This document shows positions 1,870 through 58,828 of a DNA stretch of 64,000 bases, piece by piece. Source of the stretch: a phage; sequence record PZ445428.1, one strand, 5' to 3'. Below the pieces are notes generated by a model. It saw only the letters and a list, made by a program, of their open reading frames with translations. It ran no database searches and was not told the origin of the DNA. Made by a program: the position numbers and the translations under genes. How positions within the stretch are numbered: the first letter of the stretch is position 1; every line of letters starts with the position of its first letter.

Positions 1870-3086
1870 TGGGTTTAAAAAGCTGGATTACTGAAAAGCT
1901 AAATCCGGGTCAACGTATTATAAGAGACATGGAACCAGTTAGTCATCGTACTAACCGAAAGCCCTATACCACAGGTCAAGCCTACAGTAAGATTGAGATT
2001 CTCAACCGAACTGCTAACATGGTCATTGATAGTGCGGCTGAGTGTTCTTATACTGTCGGAGCAAAATATAATATTGTCACGTATGCTAATGGCGTCAAGG
2101 CAAAGACTCTAGACACTCTCTTAAATGTACGACCTAATCCATTCATGGATATAAGCACATTCCGTAGACTTGTAGTCACTGACCTACTTTTTGAAGGTTG
2201 TGCGTATATCTATTGGGATGGCACAGCACTTTACCATGTCCCGGCTGCTCTTATGCAGGTCGAGGCAGATGCCAATAAGTTTATCAAAAAATTTATATTT
2301 AATAATCAGATAGACTATCGCGTAGATGAGATTATCTTTATAAAGGATAACAGTTACGTGTGTGGCACAAACTCTCAAATTTCTGGACAATCTCGTGTTG
2401 CTACTGTTATTGACTCTCTTGAGAAGCGTTCTAAAATGCTCAACTTTAAAGAGAAGTTCCTCGATAACGGCACCGTGATTGGTCTTATTCTTGAGACGGA
2501 TGAAATCCTGAACAAGAAATTGCGTGAGCGTAAACAAGAAGAATTACAACTCGATTATAATCCTAGTACGGGTCAGTCTACTGTCCTGATTCTAGATGGT
2601 GGTATGAAAGCAAAACCGTACTCCCAAATATCCTCATTTAAAGATCTAGACTTTAAAGACGACATTGAACGTTTCGATAAGAGCGTCTGTCTGGCTTTTG
2701 GTGTTCCGCAAGTTCTGATTGATGGTGGTAATAACGCTAATATTCGACCAAACATCGAATTGTTCTACTACATGACAATCGTTCCTATGCTGAACAAACT
2801 GACTAGTTCTCTTACTTTCTTCTTTGGTTACAAGATTACTCCTGATACTAAGGAAGTAGTTGCGTTAACTCCAGATAAGGAAGCTGAGGCTAAACATTTA
2901 ACCTCTCTGGTTAATAACGGTATCATGACTGGTAACGAAGCTCGACAAGAGCTGAACCTTGAACCTTTAGATGATGAGCAGATGAATAAGATTCGTATTC
3001 CTGCTAACGTTGCTGGTTCTGCTACAGGTGTATCTGGTCAAGAAGGTGGTAGACCGCAAGGTTCCGCCGAAGGGGATGAAGAATGA
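1869..3086 (+). CDS. Portal protein
   Basis: 405-aa ORF between terminase and protease/capsid genes; start overlaps upstream stop (TAATG); size and position typical of siphovirus portal. Confidence 0.75.
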   Translation: MGLKSWITEKLNPGQRIIRDMEPVSHRTNRKPYTTGQAYSKIEILNRTANMVIDSAAECSYTVGAKYNIVTYANGVKAKTLDTLLNVRPNPFMDISTFRRLVVTDLLFEGCAYIYWDGTALYHVPAALMQVEADANKFIKKFIFNNQIDYRVDEIIFIKDNSYVCGTNSQISGQSRVATVIDSLEKRSKMLNFKEKFLDNGTVIGLILETDEILNKKLRERKQEELQLDYNPSTGQSTVLILDGGMKAKPYSQISSFKDLDFKDDIERFDKSVCLAFGVPQVLIDGGNNANIRPNIELFYYMTIVPMLNKLTSSLTFFFGYKITPDTKEVVALTPDKEAEAKHLTSLVNNGIMTGNEARQELNLEPLDDEQMNKIRIPANVAGSATGVSGQEGGRPQGSAEGDEE

Positions 3087-3565
3087 TTGATTATGATGGT
3101 CTGAAGGCCATTTTTGGTGAGAAGTTACCAGAATCTCATATCTTCTTTGCTACGGTTGCAGCACACAAGTTTGTTCCGAACTACACTACTCTACGTAAAG
3201 AGTTCGGAATGACCACTGCACATACCAACCGCAAGGTTTGGAATAAGTTCAAAGAAGCTTACGAAGTTACTGCTCCGGTTGTCCCGGCTCTAGCTTTCAC
3301 GAAGAATCTGGCTAAAACTCTAGCTATTGAAGAAGGCACAGCAATTAATCTAGGTGTTACGGTTACTGGTGGTACTGCACCATATACGTATGCTTGGACT
3401 AAAGATGGTTCTCCACTGAGTGGTGCTACCGGCCCTAACTTCAATAAAGCAACCGCGGCTGCAGGAGATGCAGGTACTTACAAAGTCGTAGTAACGGATA
3501 GTAAATCTACCGCCATTACTTCTAACGAGTGTGTAACTACTGTTAATCCTGCTGCTGGAGGCTAA
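3083..3565 (+). CDS. Capsid decoration protein with C-terminal Ig-like domain
   Basis: 160 aa; C-terminal TVTGGTAPYTYAWTKDGSPL...GTYKVVVTD is an Ig-like fold signature; position between portal and protease matches T5-type decoration protein. Confidence 0.55.
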   Translation: MIDYDGLKAIFGEKLPESHIFFATVAAHKFVPNYTTLRKEFGMTTAHTNRKVWNKFKEAYEVTAPVVPALAFTKNLAKTLAIEEGTAINLGVTVTGGTAPYTYAWTKDGSPLSGATGPNFNKATAAAGDAGTYKVVVTDSKSTAITSNECVTTVNPAAGG

Positions 3566-29595: not shown

Positions 29596-30553
29596 ATTTA
29601 GCAGCTCTAGCCAAAATTCGATCAATATCGTCTTGGGTCAGCTTTTCAACTTCACGGAAGTAAAGTTCTAGCTCGCCTAACATATCAAGATCGACAAGAT
29701 TTAATTTAGCATCTTTAGTAACTCGATGGTTAATCTTTTTATCTAAGAGATCGGAGTTCTTAACAGACTTCAACTGAACAACGTCACCAGTGACTTCATA
29801 GATTACACGGTCATAATCACTTGGTTCCATTTCTTCGCCAACCTCGATTGTCCTACGAATCAATTGAGGTAAATCACCAAGTTCAATCCATTCTACTTTT
29901 AATGTGTCGGTATCGATGATGAAACAACCATTCGTACCTTTTGTGCGTTCTCTATGGAACGATGTAGTTAACGGAGATCCTGGATAAAGAAGTTTAGTAG
30001 AACCAATAGTTTGACTATTAGTATAAGAATGTAAATCGCCAGCAATTACAGTGTCATAACAGTTATACCTCGTTAGATCAATCTCTGGTTTTACATGTGG
30101 AGGGATTTCACCACGAACATGCGTGAAACATAGTTTTGATTCAGATGGTTTCCACTTCGGTTTGTGGATTTCAGCGTAGGGAACTATATCATATTCTGGT
30201 GAACGATAGGGCTTAGTAACAACATCCCATTTTCCATTAGTTACCTTATGGATAACTCCAGCATAGTGATACAAACATGAAATTGTTTTGGTTAACATTT
30301 CATGGTTTCCGGTGAAGATCTTACCGGGATGATCAAGTCTTGACATGAATTGTTCAAGAAGTTCTACTTCTTCCGACGACGGGTCGGAATGGTCAAATAA
30401 ATCACCACCAATAATATGAAGATCACAGTTATGATTATGGAATACATCATTTAAACGGCCCCCCAACATTAAGAATCTCTTCTTTTGCCATTCTTTGGGG
30501 ATTTTGTCCTGTCCAAGTTTTATATGATGATCTGCGCTAAAGAGTATTTTCAT
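29576..30553 (-). CDS. SbcD/Mre11-like nuclease (calcineurin-type phosphoesterase)
   Basis: LFSADHH, GGDLFDH, GNHE, HVRG metallophosphatase motifs; adjacent to SbcC-like gene. Confidence 0.8.
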   Translation of the reverse strand: MKILFSADHHIKLGQDKIPKEWQKKRFLMLGGRLNDVFHNHNCDLHIIGGDLFDHSDPSSEEVELLEQFMSRLDHPGKIFTGNHEMLTKTISCLYHYAGVIHKVTNGKWDVVTKPYRSPEYDIVPYAEIHKPKWKPSESKLCFTHVRGEIPPHVKPEIDLTRYNCYDTVIAGDLHSYTNSQTIGSTKLLYPGSPLTTSFHRERTKGTNGCFIIDTDTLKVEWIELGDLPQLIRRTIEVGEEMEPSDYDRVIYEVTGDVVQLKSVKNSDLLDKKINHRVTKDAKLNLVDLDMLGELELYFREVEKLTQDDIDRILARAAKYVKDYN

Positions 30554-31074
30554 CTTTGTGCATACTTTCGCTTTATCTCTTGAATATCTATTCCTTGTTT
30601 CAGTTCACTCAAAACCTGGACTAAGATGCCCTCGAGATCTTTTCGTTCTTTACTAGCCATTATATGGTAGTGTTTTTTTTTTTTTTTATTATAATACAAA
30701 CGTAGAGTATATGTACTTGATTTGACATTGTAGCTTATATTTCCAGAATAATTTTCTATATTCTGCATGTTAGATCGGTGATCACCGTTTTTGAGGTTGT
30801 CCCATCTATTATCGTGTCGTATGCGATTATCATGGTCAATTTCTTCTGGCATCTCCCCGGTTTGCATTAACCAAATAAGTCTGTGCAACCTATATTTAGT
30901 TCCAAATACCATAGCATCTAAATATCCAGACTGCTTAGAGGGAGTTCCTACAGGTTTTCCTACACAATCTTTAGGAAGTCCATTTGACCATACTTTATAG
31001 GTTACAATACCTGTATCTGGATCATATGAGAATCTACGATGACATTCATTGTACAACTTAACTAAATCATCCAT
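30550..31074 (-). CDS. HNH homing endonuclease (HNH_3-like)
   Basis: GKPVG...GY...YRLHRL...IDHDNR...DNRWDNL motif set; paralogous to ORF 57161-57679; contains an A15 run (KKKKK). Confidence 0.6.
   Translation of the reverse strand: MDDLVKLYNECHRRFSYDPDTGIVTYKVWSNGLPKDCVGKPVGTPSKQSGYLDAMVFGTKYRLHRLIWLMQTGEMPEEIDHDNRIRHDNRWDNLKNGDHRSNMQNIENYSGNISYNVKSSTYTLRLYYNKKKKKHYHIMASKERKDLEGILVQVLSELKQGIDIQEIKRKYAQR
30673..30687 (-). repeat. Homopolymer run (T15 on plus strand, A15 on coding strand) inside HNH ORF
   Basis: 15 consecutive T at 30673-30687; encodes KKKKK in the minus-strand ORF. Confidence 0.9.
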
Positions 31075-31080
31075 AAGTTA

Positions 31081-31106
31081 AAAATAAAGGGGCATGAAGC
31101 CCCTTT
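31081..31106 (-). terminator. Rho-independent terminator
   Basis: Minus strand GGGGC-TTCAT-GCCCC hairpin followed by TTTATTTTT. Confidence 0.6.
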
Positions 31107-31111
31107 GGTTA

Positions 31112-54660: not shown

Positions 54661-54689
54661 TTGCATAATGACTCAAAACAAAGTAGAAT
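54661..54689 (+). promoter_or_regulatory. Candidate promoter for nrdA
   Basis: TTGCAT-17 nt-TAGAAT, about 40 nt upstream of the nrdA ATG. Confidence 0.4.
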
Positions 54690-54727
54690 ATTTCCTAAAT
54701 CCTGAGAACTACAAAAAGGAAACTGCA

Positions 54728-57061
54728 ATGGACTTTCGAATCACAAAAGTAATTAAACGCGACGGTACGATCCAGGACTTTGCTCCTGAAAAACTCAACG
54801 ACTGGGCTGCGTGGGCATGTAAGAATGCTAACGTTAGCTGGTCTGCCGTAGTTATGGCTGCACTGAAAAATCTACCTAAAGGGGTTGTAGATTCCGATAC
54901 ACTTCAAGATGTATTAATCAAAGCAGCAGAAGGTTTGATCAAAGATAACCCTGCGTATGATGAAGTAGCGAAGGAATTACGTCTTGCACAGATGCGTAAA
55001 CGCCTGTATGATTCCTATGAACCACCTTCTTTACGTTTCTTCCATGACCACATGGTTAAAGTTGGGGCTTGGGAAGATATGAGTGCATGGATTTCCGATG
55101 AACAGTTTGACGCTTTGAATGGTGTTATTGATCATGAACGTGATCGTCTCTTCACTAGCGGTGGTCTGAAACAGTTCTTCGATAAGTATTCCCGTCGTAA
55201 TATCGCAACTGGCGAAATTTACGAAACCCCGCAATTTGCCTACATGGGTATGGCAATGGCGATGTTATCTCAACCTAACTGGACAATTCTGGATGCAATC
55301 GACCTCTACAATGCAATGTCGCTCCATAAAATCAACGTTCCTACTCCGCCACTGGTTGGTCTGCGCTCTAGTGACCGTGGATTTGCTAGTTGCTGCCTCG
55401 TGGATTCCACGGACACGCTGGATTCAATCGACACAGCCGAGCACATCGTTTTCAAAATGGTCGCAGCCAGAGCGGGAATCGGGTATCATCTTGAAAGCCG
55501 ATCAATTGCTGATCCGGTGCGAAATGGGGCGTTCCCGCATTCCGGAAAACTGCCATATTATAGACACATCGACCGTTCAGTAAAAGCGAACACTCAGCAA
55601 ACCCGTGGTGGTTCTGCTACTGTATCTTATCCGTACTTCGATCCTGAAATCATTCAGTTGATGCAGGTTAAACAGCAACGTGCTACAGACGAGAACAAAA
55701 TCGATAAGATGGACTACTCTCTGAGCTTTAACAACCTTCTATTGAAACGTTATCTGAAAAACGAAGATATTACGCTCATGTCTTACTTCTATGCACCAGA
55801 AGTCCACGAAGCGTTTTATGGGGAAGATGAGGCTAAGTTTGAAGAAATCTATGTGGCAGCGGAGAAACGTGTGGCATCTCTTACAAAGATCGACCACGAA
55901 GGAAAAACAATTCCAGCAGCTCCTAAAATCCCTGCAAAAGAAATCCTAGATACTTGGTTACGTATCCGTATGGAAACAGGTCGTATGTACGCTCATCACA
56001 TTGGGGAATCTAACCGTCATGGTAACTTCCTTGACCCGATTCGTATGACCAACCTTTGTGTAGAGATTACCCAGCCAACTCGTCCATTCCAGCACATTAC
56101 GGAACTGTACAAAACTCCAGATCAACTGGATGATATGCGTCCAGAAGATATTGGTGAAGTATCTCTGTGTAACCTGGGTGGTGTTGTTCTAGGCCGTATG
56201 AGTTCTCTGGCAGAATGGGAGAAAACTTGCTACATCCTTCTGAAATTCGTTGATACTATCATTGAAATTCAGGACTATCCGTTCCCAACTATGGAATACA
56301 CGGCTAAGAAGCGTCGTAACGTAGGTATTGGTCTGATGAATGCAGCAGGTGCAATGGCAGCAGAAGGTCTGGCTTACGAAGGTGAAGAAGCTCGTAACTG
56401 GATTCACCGTGAAGCTGAGAAGCTCTCTTACTTCCTGCATAAAGCCTCTGTACGTCTGGCAAAAGAACAAGGTGCATGTGATTGGTTTAACCGTACCAAA
56501 CCTTCTCAAGGAACTCTGGTAATCGACACCTATAAGAAAACTGTTGATGAACTGGTATCCGTAGGTCTAGAAATGGATTGGGAATCTCTGCGTGCAGATA
56601 TCCTGAAATACGGTATGCGTAACTCTGTTCTGACAGCTCAGATGCCTGGTGAAAGTTCTTCTGTACTGTTAGGTGTTACCAACTCAATTGAGCCACCTCG
56701 TAAGATTGTATCTATCAAGGGTAGTGCAGTGAACAAAGTAATTGCAATTGCTCCAGGTGCAACTGATTGGGATACTCTCATGAGCTATAAACTAGCCTAT
56801 GATGTAGATCGCATTGAGTGGATCAAGTGGGTAGCAACTATGCAGAAATTCTTCAGCCAGTCTATTAGTACGAACATGTACTATGACTACACCAAGTTTG
56901 AGAATGAAATCATTCCTGGCCCAGTAGTAGTTCGTGATTTCATGACTGCTGTTAAGTACGGATGGAAGACTTGGTACTACGCTAACTTCAACACTGAAAA
57001 CGGTGGTGGAGCAGGTGAAGAAGCCGCAGCTGGTTGTGCATCAGGTGGTTGCCAACTTTAA
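54728..57061 (+). CDS. nrdA: Ribonucleotide reductase large subunit (class I alpha)
   Basis: N-terminal ATP-cone-like MDFRITKVIKRDGT; C-terminal tail ...AAGCASGGCQL with Cys pair; start set to ATG 54728 after AAAAAGGA (track start 54668 overlaps the promoter). Confidence 0.9.
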   Translation: MDFRITKVIKRDGTIQDFAPEKLNDWAAWACKNANVSWSAVVMAALKNLPKGVVDSDTLQDVLIKAAEGLIKDNPAYDEVAKELRLAQMRKRLYDSYEPPSLRFFHDHMVKVGAWEDMSAWISDEQFDALNGVIDHERDRLFTSGGLKQFFDKYSRRNIATGEIYETPQFAYMGMAMAMLSQPNWTILDAIDLYNAMSLHKINVPTPPLVGLRSSDRGFASCCLVDSTDTLDSIDTAEHIVFKMVAARAGIGYHLESRSIADPVRNGAFPHSGKLPYYRHIDRSVKANTQQTRGGSATVSYPYFDPEIIQLMQVKQQRATDENKIDKMDYSLSFNNLLLKRYLKNEDITLMSYFYAPEVHEAFYGEDEAKFEEIYVAAEKRVASLTKIDHEGKTIPAAPKIPAKEILDTWLRIRMETGRMYAHHIGESNRHGNFLDPIRMTNLCVEITQPTRPFQHITELYKTPDQLDDMRPEDIGEVSLCNLGGVVLGRMSSLAEWEKTCYILLKFVDTIIEIQDYPFPTMEYTAKKRRNVGIGLMNAAGAMAAEGLAYEGEEARNWIHREAEKLSYFLHKASVRLAKEQGACDWFNRTKPSQGTLVIDTYKKTVDELVSVGLEMDWESLRADILKYGMRNSVLTAQMPGESSSVLLGVTNSIEPPRKIVSIKGSAVNKVIAIAPGATDWDTLMSYKLAYDVDRIEWIKWVATMQKFFSQSISTNMYYDYTKFENEIIPGPVVVRDFMTAVKYGWKTWYYANFNTENGGGAGEEAAAGCASGGCQL

Positions 57062-57070
57062 TAAAACTAA

Positions 57071-57097
57071 GGAGATCTTCGGGTCTCCTTTTTCTTT
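57071..57097 (+). terminator. Rho-independent terminator after nrdA
   Basis: GGAGATC-TTCG-GGTCTCC hairpin followed by TTTTTCTTT. Confidence 0.65.
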
Positions 57098-57107
57098 GAA
57101 ATTTTAC

Positions 57108-57136
57108 TTGCTAATCGCGACCTGATTTGCTATAAT
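57108..57136 (+). promoter_or_regulatory. Sigma70-type promoter upstream of HNH gene
   Basis: TTGCTA-17 nt-TATAAT followed by AAGGAGA RBS. Confidence 0.55.
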
Positions 57137-57160
57137 ATCTCTATATTAAGGAGATATACT

Positions 57161-57679
57161 GTGAAACCTCAATTAACAAAAGAATTTCTAGAGAAATACC
57201 TAGAACTCAGAGAAGATACACTCTATTGGAAGCCAAGAGAAACTAACAAGGGTGGATTTAACACTAGATTTGCTGGAAAACCTGTAGGAGCCGTCAATGG
57301 AAATGGCTACCTATGCTTCCGACTTAATGTGGAAGGTTATAGATGGGAGTTAAGAAATCATGTAGTAATCTTCTGTCTCTATTATGGATATTACCCTACT
57401 AAGACAGTAGATCATAAAGATACAAATAAACTTAATAACCACCCTTTAAGTCTAAGGGAATCAACCGATGCTGGTAACGCCCAAAATAGAGGAGCTGGTA
57501 AAAACAATACTCATGGGCATAAAAACCTAGAGCCTCTTAGTTCAGGAAACTGGAGGGTTAGGATAACACACAACGGTACTGTTTATAGATCTTCCGCAAT
57601 GCCTTTAGAAAAAGCTCTAGAACATAGAGATATTAAACTTAAAGAATTTCATGGTGAATACGCTAATAATGGAGAATAA
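57161..57679 (+). CDS. HNH homing endonuclease (HNH_3-like), free-standing between nrdA and nrdB
   Basis: GKPVGAVNGNGY...YRWELRNHV...VDHKDTNKLNNHPLSLRE motif set; GTG start after AAGGAGA; own promoter and terminator. Confidence 0.7.
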   Translation: MKPQLTKEFLEKYLELREDTLYWKPRETNKGGFNTRFAGKPVGAVNGNGYLCFRLNVEGYRWELRNHVVIFCLYYGYYPTKTVDHKDTNKLNNHPLSLRESTDAGNAQNRGAGKNNTHGHKNLEPLSSGNWRVRITHNGTVYRSSAMPLEKALEHRDIKLKEFHGEYANNGE

Positions 57680-57682
57680 TTA

Positions 57683-58828
57683 ATGACAACCTTACTAAAT
57701 CTGAACTGGAATCCTGATTCTGAAGAGCTATTTCTGGGTGATGCTTTGGGAGTAGCAGACTATGTTCGTGTTGCTCATCCAGAGCTAGAACGACTTGCAC
57801 TATTGCAGAGGAGCCAGTTTTGGACTGAAACAGAAATCAGTCTAGAAAGTGACAAAAAGCAATGGCCTAATCTCCCAAGAGAAATACAAGAAATCACTCT
57901 GCTGAATTTAGCTTGGCAGGTTCAAACAGATTCATTTATTAGTAGAGCACCAGAAGCCGCAGTACTTCCTTTGGTTAGTCGCCCTGAGTTAGAGGGAATG
58001 CTAAAGCAGTGGAGCTACTTCGAAGATCTGCACAGCCGTGCTTATAGCAACATTATCCGTAACGTTCTGACTGATCCAGCAGAATTTATCGATTCTGTTA
58101 CAAAAAACCAAGAAGCATTCGCACGTATCGCTGATTCCGTAGAACTGTTCGATGAACTGTATCAATTAGGTCAGTATTTCATCGCAGTACGTGACCATCG
58201 TGGTGACAATACTTATCCAGAAACCGAGTTTCCTGAAGTTAAACGTGAAACTCAGGCTAAACTGTTAGATGCCTATTTTGCAATCTATGGTCTGGAAGCA
58301 ATGCAGTTCTACGCATCTTTTGCTTGTACCTTTGCTCTAGCAGAAAACGATATTCTGCAAGGTATTGCTAAGAACCTGCAATTGATTGCTAAAGATGAAG
58401 CTCTGCATACTCAAATGTCCAAAGCAGTTATCCAGATCATGTTCCAGCAGTTCGACCAAGATCTGATTGATGAAGCTCTGGCTAAAGCACCAGCGCAGCT
58501 TTTGAAAACTCTGCAAACTGAAATCAACTGGGGCCACTTTATCTTTAAAGGCCGTAGTCTGATTGGTCTGAACGCAGAACTTCTGGAAGAATACCTTTAC
58601 TTTGTAGGACGTAACGCATTTATGCATATTGGCGTAGAATGGCCGAGCAATCTGCCAGTAATTACTAAGAACCCAATTCCGTGGATCATGAACTGGCTGG
58701 ATACTACCTCTTTACAACCTGCTCCACAGGAAATCCAGATTGGTGCAGCTTATCGTGTAGGTCAGGTAACTGAGACTTCAACTGATACCTTGAAAGACCT
58801 GGGTAATGAATTTGAGGGCATGTTCTAA
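57683..58828 (+). CDS. nrdB: Ribonucleotide reductase small subunit (class I beta)
   Basis: 381 aa; di-iron ligand-like ExxH segments (EDLHSRAYS, DEALHTQ); adjacent to nrdA. Confidence 0.85.
   Translation: MTTLLNLNWNPDSEELFLGDALGVADYVRVAHPELERLALLQRSQFWTETEISLESDKKQWPNLPREIQEITLLNLAWQVQTDSFISRAPEAAVLPLVSRPELEGMLKQWSYFEDLHSRAYSNIIRNVLTDPAEFIDSVTKNQEAFARIADSVELFDELYQLGQYFIAVRDHRGDNTYPETEFPEVKRETQAKLLDAYFAIYGLEAMQFYASFACTFALAENDILQGIAKNLQLIAKDEALHTQMSKAVIQIMFQQFDQDLIDEALAKAPAQLLKTLQTEINWGHFIFKGRSLIGLNAELLEEYLYFVGRNAFMHIGVEWPSNLPVITKNPIPWIMNWLDTTSLQPAPQEIQIGAAYRVGQVTETSTDTLKDLGNEFEGMF

Follow-up and report, generated by a model that had tools for sequence, protein, structure and literature searches.

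A Free-Standing HNH_3 Endonuclease Gene Between nrdA and nrdB of a T5-Like Phage Is Co-Inherited With the 5' End of nrdB and Probably Spreads by Homing

Introduction

In the phage DNA studied here, a gene of the HNH endonuclease type stands between nrdA and nrdB, the genes for the large and the small subunits of ribonucleotide reductase (RNR). This arrangement raises the question of whether the gene is a mobile element, and which of the expression signals in its surroundings belong to it. The window, i.e., the whole stretch of DNA that was analyzed, comprises 64,000 nucleotides (sequence record PZ445428.1).

The presence or absence of HNH endonuclease genes makes up much of the genome difference among T5-like phages (PMC10644984; PMC3326045). 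Niu et al. (2012) drew a parallel between mobE and the gene located between nrdA and nrdB in T5 and AKFV33, and described this position as a hotspot in T5-like and T-even phages (PMC3326045). In phage T4, the HNH gene mobE lies between nrdA and nrdB and is promoterless; MobE nicks nrdB of phage T2 at nucleotides 122-126, and the recombination point is situated inside the first 189 nt of nrdB (PMC2790892). The corresponding T5 gene, hegH (P-TflVIII), has been annotated since the publication of the T5 genome. The gene under study belongs to a group of closely related alleles that we designate lineage A; our literature search found no paper on this lineage or on its copy in phage Bas27, nor on its activity, cut site, or biased inheritance.

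Results

The Open Reading Frame Between nrdA and nrdB Is a Genuine Gene

The nrdA-nrdB stretch of the window (positions 54668-58828) is 100% identical to that of Escherichia phage TrudiGerster (Bas27, MZ501108.1), a T5-like phage of the family Demerecviridae and the genus Epseptimavirus. In this region, a window coordinate equals the MZ501108.1 record coordinate minus 480. All three genes are read from the plus strand. The gene for the large subunit of a class Ia RNR, nrdA (54668-57061; Pfam Ribonuc_red_lgC, E 4e-120), is followed by the free-standing endonuclease gene bas27_0060 (57161-57679), which starts with GTG and encodes a protein of 172 amino acids, and by the gene for the small RNR subunit, nrdB (57683-58828; Pfam Ribonuc_red_sm, E 2.6e-34). 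The stop codon of the endonuclease gene (57677-57679) lies 3 nt ahead of the nrdB ATG at 57683. GenBank already labels bas27_0060 as a "putative homing endonuclease."

Six of the six lineage-A alleles that we compared are intact at nucleotide identities of 85-100%, with dN/dS ratios (omega) of 0.01-0.04 and dS values of up to about 1.1. Since all six alleles are intact and omega is this low, the open reading frame at 57161-57679 represents a real gene and not a chance open reading frame. An intact lineage-A gene that lacks a GenBank annotation is present in Salmonella phage EH7 (locus L034, positions 3001-3548); it shares 85% nucleotide and about 94% protein identity with the copy in the window. 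A scan of positions 56500-58300 against Rfam at E-values of up to 1 returned no RNA family.

The Predicted Protein Combines an HNH_3 Active Site With an AP2-Like C-Terminal Domain

An HNH_3-type reading frame had been predicted at this position, and this assignment holds: the protein matches Pfam HNH_3 (PF13392) with 33.8 bits against a cutoff of 24.8 (E 2.7e-8), and PHROG 99, "HNH endonuclease," with an E-value of 3.9e-38. PF01844, the classical HNH family to which T4 MobE belongs, was not matched; HNH_3 was the only hit of a Pfam scan at E-values of up to 0.1. While a search with the single sequence in a set of 5.8 billion proteins yielded just two clusters, a profile built from eight spacer endonucleases retrieved 124 relatives.

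The active site can be aligned without gaps to that of I-HmuI (PDB 1U3E), placing D84 and H85 on D74 and H75, S97 on N87, and N106 on N96 of I-HmuI. By this alignment, the codons for D84 and H85 (57410-57415, plus strand) specify the putative metal ligand and general base. Both residues are present in 66 of 66 family members, and N106 in 65 of them.

An AlphaFold model computed from the 66-sequence alignment (pLDDT 93.4, pTM 0.82) has I-HmuI 1U3E as its top Foldseek match in the PDB (E 2.4e-4, probability 1.0, 168 columns). In this model, the C-terminal segment of about 55 residues folds into three strands and a helix, for which Foldseek reports matches to the AP2 domains of Arabidopsis TEM1 and ERF96 with rmsd values of 1.7-2.8 Å, probabilities of 0.66-1.0, and E-values of 0.15-1.7. 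When the isolated C-terminal and N-terminal parts were scanned against Pfam at E-values of up to 10, no AP2 (PF00847), NUMOD, or other domain was found, so that the AP2 resemblance rests on the model and on the homologs, 30 of 120 of which combine Pfam AP2 (PF00847) with HNH_3. Members of the HNH_3 group are known to combine with AP2 domains (PMC5714182). As modeled, the protein is a putative endonuclease of the HNH_3 type (I-HmuI-like, His-Me finger) whose C-terminal domain is AP2-like and would bind DNA.

The Terminator and the Promoter Upstream of the Endonuclease Gene Belong to the Resident Genes

Our scan of the plus strand detected an intrinsic terminator at 57069-57097, a 9-bp hairpin of the form AAGGAGATC-TTCG-GGTCTCCTT with a T-tract, and a promoter at 57108-57136, TTGCTA-N17-TATAAT with a TG-extended -10 region. 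Both had been ascribed to the endonuclease gene as its own, but gene-less relatives possess both elements in practically identical sequence. In the empty-site Salmonella phage vB_SenS-AKM_ECS, the terminator and the promoter match those of the window at every base up to TATAATAT, and a spacer alignment revealed essentially the same two elements in all 16 empty alleles. The promoter is conserved across the entire set of empty, A, B, C, and D alleles (the letters denote the endonuclease lineages described below), and the element equivalent to it in T5 is annotated as "promoter" upstream of hegH. The terminator is likewise identical in alleles that carry other endonuclease lineages, save for those with lineages C and C', which possess a hairpin of their own. 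Since both elements are present in gene-less relatives, they represent the terminator of nrdA and the promoter of nrdB, both resident at this locus. It also follows that the insertion did not split a single transcription unit, as the proposed interruption of an RNR operon would have it, because nrdA and nrdB are already separated by this terminator and this promoter in the empty alleles.

What the endonuclease gene does possess, as had been predicted, is a ribosome-binding site. The allele in the window departs from the empty allele at position 57139: after the shared TATAATAT, the empty allele continues with TCCTGAAATAG and the allele studied here with CTCTATATTAAGGAG. The leader that begins at this left junction (57139-57160, plus strand) contains the Shine-Dalgarno sequence AAGGAG (57148-57153), which stands 8 nt before the GTG of the endonuclease gene.

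The native 29-nt leader of nrdB (TCCTGAAATAGTGAGAAAGAGGAAAATCA) has been replaced by the endonuclease gene in this phage, and the native leader sequence GAGAAAGAGGAAAATCA is gone in lineages A, B, and D alike. The genes of these three lineages all end in GGAGAA-containing sequences located 6-9 nt before the nrdB ATG; in the window, the GGAG at 57671-57674 (plus strand), embedded in the last codons of the endonuclease gene, is the candidate replacement for the nrdB ribosome-binding site.

A different arrangement of the 5' end was noted for lineage B. In STWB21 (locus L002, positions 2950-2965), and also in loci L003, L022, and L025, the ATG of the endonuclease gene is positioned only 6 nt past the -10 box TATAAT of the nrdB promoter, so that the transcript probably has little or no leader.

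Empty Sites Are Common, and at Least Five Endonuclease Lineages Share the Spacer

Alignment of the nrdA-nrdB junctions of related phages reveals that alleles free of an insertion exist and are common. In an even sample of 60 records taken down the ranking of 446 T5-like records, of which 59 were informative, the uninterrupted 106-nt spacer was found in 33 (about 56%), and the spacers of the remainder were about 465-520 nt longer. Likewise, 16 of the 27 IMG/VR loci fetched with NrdB were empty. By megablast, lineage A is present in 34 of the 461 T5-like records that match the region, at nucleotide identities of 85-100%.

The occupied loci carry lineages A, B, C, C', and D, i.e., at least five HNH_3 lineages, and within the 106-nt spacer these use two different sub-sites. 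A, B, and D share a single insertion point, which lies past the -10 box of the nrdB promoter. Lineage B was found in 29 records and its protein is 35% identical to that of lineage A; lineage D corresponds to hegH ("P-TflVIII") of T5. Lineages C and C' occupy the second sub-site between the nrdA stop codon and the -35 box, where their own hairpin takes the place of the resident terminator; their genes run right up to the -35 box of the nrdB promoter (L009, L030, L031, and L026).

We considered a packaging-associated HNH protein and a T5 nicking enzyme as identities for the gene product and rejected both, since the gene is absent from most relatives and other lineages substitute for it.

A Cassette of the Endonuclease Gene and About 240 nt at the nrdB 5' End Conflicts in Relatedness With Its Flanks

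To assess the relatedness of carriers and non-carriers along the locus, we compared sequence identities segment by segment. TrudiGerster and an empty-site phage share 93.4% identity in nrdA and 91.9% in nrdB beyond nucleotide 240, but only 75.4% in nrdB nucleotides 1-240. Comparison of TrudiGerster with the other carriers gives the opposite picture: 90.5-92.4% in nrdA, 95.8% in the endonuclease gene, 96.2% in nrdB nucleotides 1-240, and 87-88% beyond nucleotide 240. Carriers thus agree at 95.8-96.2% within the cassette, against only 87-92% in their nrdA and distal nrdB sequences, and nrdB nucleotides 1-240 of the carriers have about 73-75% identity to those of the empty alleles. The carrier IrmaTschudi shows this discordance as well: over the last 900 nt of nrdA, it matches one empty-site phage at 100%, but over nrdB nucleotides 1-240 at only 72.9%.

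The nrdB segment concerned (57683-57921, plus strand) can also be recognized from individual positions. Thirty-two of 32 diagnostic sites, defined as being common to five carriers and absent in 16 empty alleles, are situated in nrdB nucleotides 6-239 (57688-57921), and they are densest at nucleotides 28-42, where six consecutive codons are changed. On the upstream side, we found no endonuclease-linked excess divergence in the last 900 nt of nrdA, as computed on a MAFFT alignment that accommodates a 3-nt indel near the nrdA 3' end. Lineages A, B, and D are each accompanied by a distinct, divergent form of the nrdB 5' end, which extends over the first 150-240 nt. Since the endonuclease gene and the nrdB tract are inherited together, we place the mobile unit at about 57139-57921.

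This is the pattern expected of homing with a one-sided co-conversion tract, and it makes nrdB the probable target gene, with its 5' end as the likely target region. The same tract is a candidate immunity region; it could instead represent ancestral sequence that hitch-hikes with the endonuclease gene. Because the genomes of T5-like phages are mosaic, ordinary recombination could also yield some of the discordance between the cassette and its flanks. Taken together, the common empty sites, the restriction of the gene to 34 of 461 records, the other lineages in the same spacer, and a cassette whose relatedness conflicts with that of its flanks bear out the prediction that this gene is likely a mobile element.

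These comparisons also bear on whether the gene might have been inherited vertically, without being mobile, and was repeatedly deleted in the phages that lack it. Such a history would accord with the finding that the 34 carriers recovered by megablast are all phages of Salmonella, Escherichia, or Citrobacter that hold the gene always in the same place, and with the classification of the carriers inspected as Epseptimavirus or as unclassified Caudoviricetes. However, the nrdA gene of TrudiGerster is nearer to that of an empty-site phage (93.4%) and to that of a lineage-B phage (91.7%) than to that of the carrier SH9 (90.5%). Moreover, the empty alleles display an invariant native leader free of deletion scars, and the boundaries of the cassette are sharp and identical in every carrier. 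We therefore regard vertical inheritance with repeated deletion as very improbable.

Salmonella phage SP01 presents a composite arrangement (locus L030, about 2960-3240). It carries a lineage-C gene at the upstream sub-site and a native, empty-type nrdB leader, and the 5' end of its nrdB gene has the haplotype that elsewhere accompanies lineage D (T5 hegH). An allele that lacks the lineage-D gene and is nevertheless marked by it is as expected after loss of the endonuclease gene or after recombination within the tract.

A Second HNH_3 Gene Is Inserted at the D12 Start Codon

The window contains a second HNH_3 gene on the minus strand (30550-31074; Pfam HNH_3, E 6.6e-11), which had been described as a paralog of the gene at nrdB. 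A second HNH_3 reading frame does exist there, but the term paralog overstates its relationship to the first: the two proteins are 28% identical over 79 amino acids (pairwise E 0.003), and the second gene is a distant family member. We rejected a recent duplication within the window on account of this low identity. No third HNH_3 copy was found among the window's open reading frames of at least 60 amino acids with an HMM built from the spacer endonucleases, which matched both known genes.

The second gene follows the D11 terminator and is inserted precisely at the D12 (sbcD-like) start codon; the TGA of the endonuclease gene overlaps the D12 ATG (ATGA). In the empty alleles (e.g., rokbiter, L039; compare window positions 31075-31111), D12 begins directly after the D11 terminator, with TTTTTAACTT running straight into the ATG; D12 has no recognizable Shine-Dalgarno sequence in these alleles, and the inserted endonuclease gene takes over the exact start position of D12.

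The second gene is present in 9 of 448 records. Its site is empty in about 87% of the sampled relatives, and a few hold another endonuclease gene, e.g., that of the HildyBeyeler type. Between TrudiGerster and phage Baret, which represent different genera, identity amounts to 97-98% across the gene plus the initial 150 nt of D12, and to 80-89% in the flanks; the co-inherited D12 segment (30404-30553, minus strand) by itself is 98% identical to that of Baret. Judged from these sequence comparisons, the second gene is an independent element that appears to follow the same cassette behavior as the one at nrdB.

A homopolymeric run distinguishes the TrudiGerster copy of the second gene from its relatives. 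In the sense of the gene, the window contains a run of 15 A residues (30673-30687, minus strand; T15 on the plus strand), which is the only run of at least nine in the window. The GenBank record MZ501108.1 has A13 at this place and Baret, by alignment, A6; the six other records with the second gene exhibit the same 515-nt span as Baret and appear to possess A6 as well. The A13 run shifts the reading frame, which explains the truncated coding sequence of 139 amino acids in GenBank, and the two additional A residues of the window restore it. Runs as long as A15 are prone to slippage.

The TrudiGerster Copy Carries a Private Substitution in the Active Site

The central asparagine of the motif is a structural residue in other HNH enzymes. 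At this position of the H-N-N motif, equivalent to N87 of I-HmuI, the copy in the window encodes Ser97 (codon AGT, 57449-57451, plus strand). Twenty-three nucleotides separate the TrudiGerster allele from the common allele of lineage A; 22 of these differences are synonymous, and N97S is the sole replacement. Of 66 family members, 65 have an asparagine at position 97, among them the five other lineage-A alleles, so that the central structural residue is characteristic of lineage A and absent in this one copy. The exact S97 allele had no match in IMG/VR.

These data raise the question of whether the lineage homes while the TrudiGerster copy has become an attenuated or inactive passenger that is inherited together with nrdB, N97S having removed the asparagine that positions the beta-hairpin and the general base. 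That the only amino-acid change among 23 nucleotide differences affects a residue so widely conserved speaks for this reading, as does the finding that the second endonuclease gene of TrudiGerster also bears a private lesion, the expansion from A6 to A13 or A15. Variants of other HNH enzymes differ in their behavior: nicking is lost in GVE2 N109A (PMC5304195), whereas I-CreII N161A retains wild-type cleavage kinetics with DNA binding that is at least 25-fold weaker (PMC2761285). Against an inactive passenger stand the otherwise intact TrudiGerster reading frame and the 22 synonymous changes, which imply constraint along most of the branch. Serine, moreover, is still able to donate and accept hydrogen bonds, and N97S could be recent or could stem from laboratory passage. 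On balance, the endonuclease copy of TrudiGerster may be weakened by N97S, but we consider it rather unlikely that it is a mere passenger.

Discussion

The explanation that we consider quite probable is that bas27_0060 is a free-standing HNH_3 homing endonuclease gene that was inserted into the interval between the nrdB promoter and nrdB, and that spreads by homing with co-conversion of the nrdB 5' end. As read from the sequence, the nrdB promoter would drive the endonuclease gene as the first cistron of an endonuclease-nrdB mRNA; translation of the endonuclease would rely on the AAGGAG in front of it and on a weak GTG start, and that of nrdB on the GGAG in the last codons of the endonuclease gene. 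The comparative data suggest that, when a carrier and a gene-less relative infect the same cell, the enzyme would nick or cut the genome of the latter near the nrdB 5' end, and that recombinational repair from the genome of the carrier would copy the gene together with up to about 240 nt of nrdB. The carriers themselves would be shielded by the replaced leader and by the carrier-specific substitutions in nrdB nucleotides 6-239.

The closest known systems fit this scheme in different respects. T5 hegH (T5.095, "putative H-N-H-endonuclease P-TflVIII") occupies the same spacer and the same sub-site, from the nrdB promoter to the nrdB start, and resembles the lineage-A gene in the GGAG that its 3' end provides for nrdB, in the layout of an HNH_3 and a C-terminal domain, in its non-ATG start, and in a similar leader (ATCTCcATTAGTTAAGGAGAT). 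However, protein identity amounts to only about 30%, hegH is associated with another nrdB 5' haplotype, and its product is likewise a putative enzyme.

T4 MobE resides in the same intergenic niche in an unrelated phage family, and the approximately 190 nt of nrdB within which its nick site and recombination point fall match the co-inherited tract of about 240 nt found here. In the classification of His-Me finger enzymes, MobE is placed into group 1 (classical HNH) and I-HmuI, with HNH_3, into group 2 (PMC5714182). Since the HNH groups differ, the likeness between MobE and lineage A reflects convergent occupancy and not orthology.

I-HmuI of the Bacillus phage SPO1 (PDB 1U3E) is the best match in sequence and fold; the spacing of its D-H...N...N residues is identical, and in both proteins the DNA-binding region at the N terminus contains a beta-sheet. 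I-HmuI is encoded within an intron, and its C-terminal domain is of the helix-turn-helix type, in contrast to the free-standing gene, the AP2-like C-terminal domain, and the serine in place of the central asparagine found in the present case. I-HmuI cleaves one strand only (PMC2761285). F-TflIV is also a free-standing HNH endonuclease of T5-like phages, but it is located at a different locus and belongs to HNH group 1.

The selective regime under which lineage A evolves invites the question of whether the gene is instead retained for a benefit to the phage, either because it damages the nrdB region of co-infecting competitors or because it tunes RNR by binding near the nrdB start. Purifying selection on the gene is very strong and long-lasting (omega 0.01-0.04, dS of about 1.1), which is unusual for a pure parasite that is expected to decay after its fixation. 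Located behind the nrdB promoter and ahead of nrdB, the gene supplies the nrdB ribosome-binding site, and for a phage intron endonuclease a role in the competition of co-infecting phages has been demonstrated (PMC11620839). Homing that continues among so many empty sites would, however, account for the purifying selection by itself, and the gene is dispensable because it is absent from about 56% of the relatives and unrelated lineages substitute for it in others. A benefit to the phage as the reason for its retention seems improbable to us.

We hold a more far-reaching scenario to be similarly doubtful. It depicts the spacer as an arena of at least five mutually displacing HNH_3 lineages, whose 150-240-nt versions of the nrdB 5' end would act as "immunity" haplotypes, and views the two lesions of TrudiGerster not as chance events but as selected attenuation or phase variation, or as steps in the domestication of a DNA-binding protein at the nrdB start.

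We conclude that bas27_0060 is an ordinary selfish gene of a known kind, already annotated and located in a known hotspot. For the annotation of this locus, our analysis means that the promoter belongs to nrdB and the terminator to nrdA, and neither of them to the endonuclease gene; the mobile unit is now delimited to about 57139-57921. The BASEL collection offers a trio of phages that grow on one host and carry the S97 allele (Bas27), the N97 allele (Bas28, IrmaTschudi), or empty sites (e.g., GreteKellenberger), and this trio can be used for measuring homing and the role of the central asparagine of the motif.
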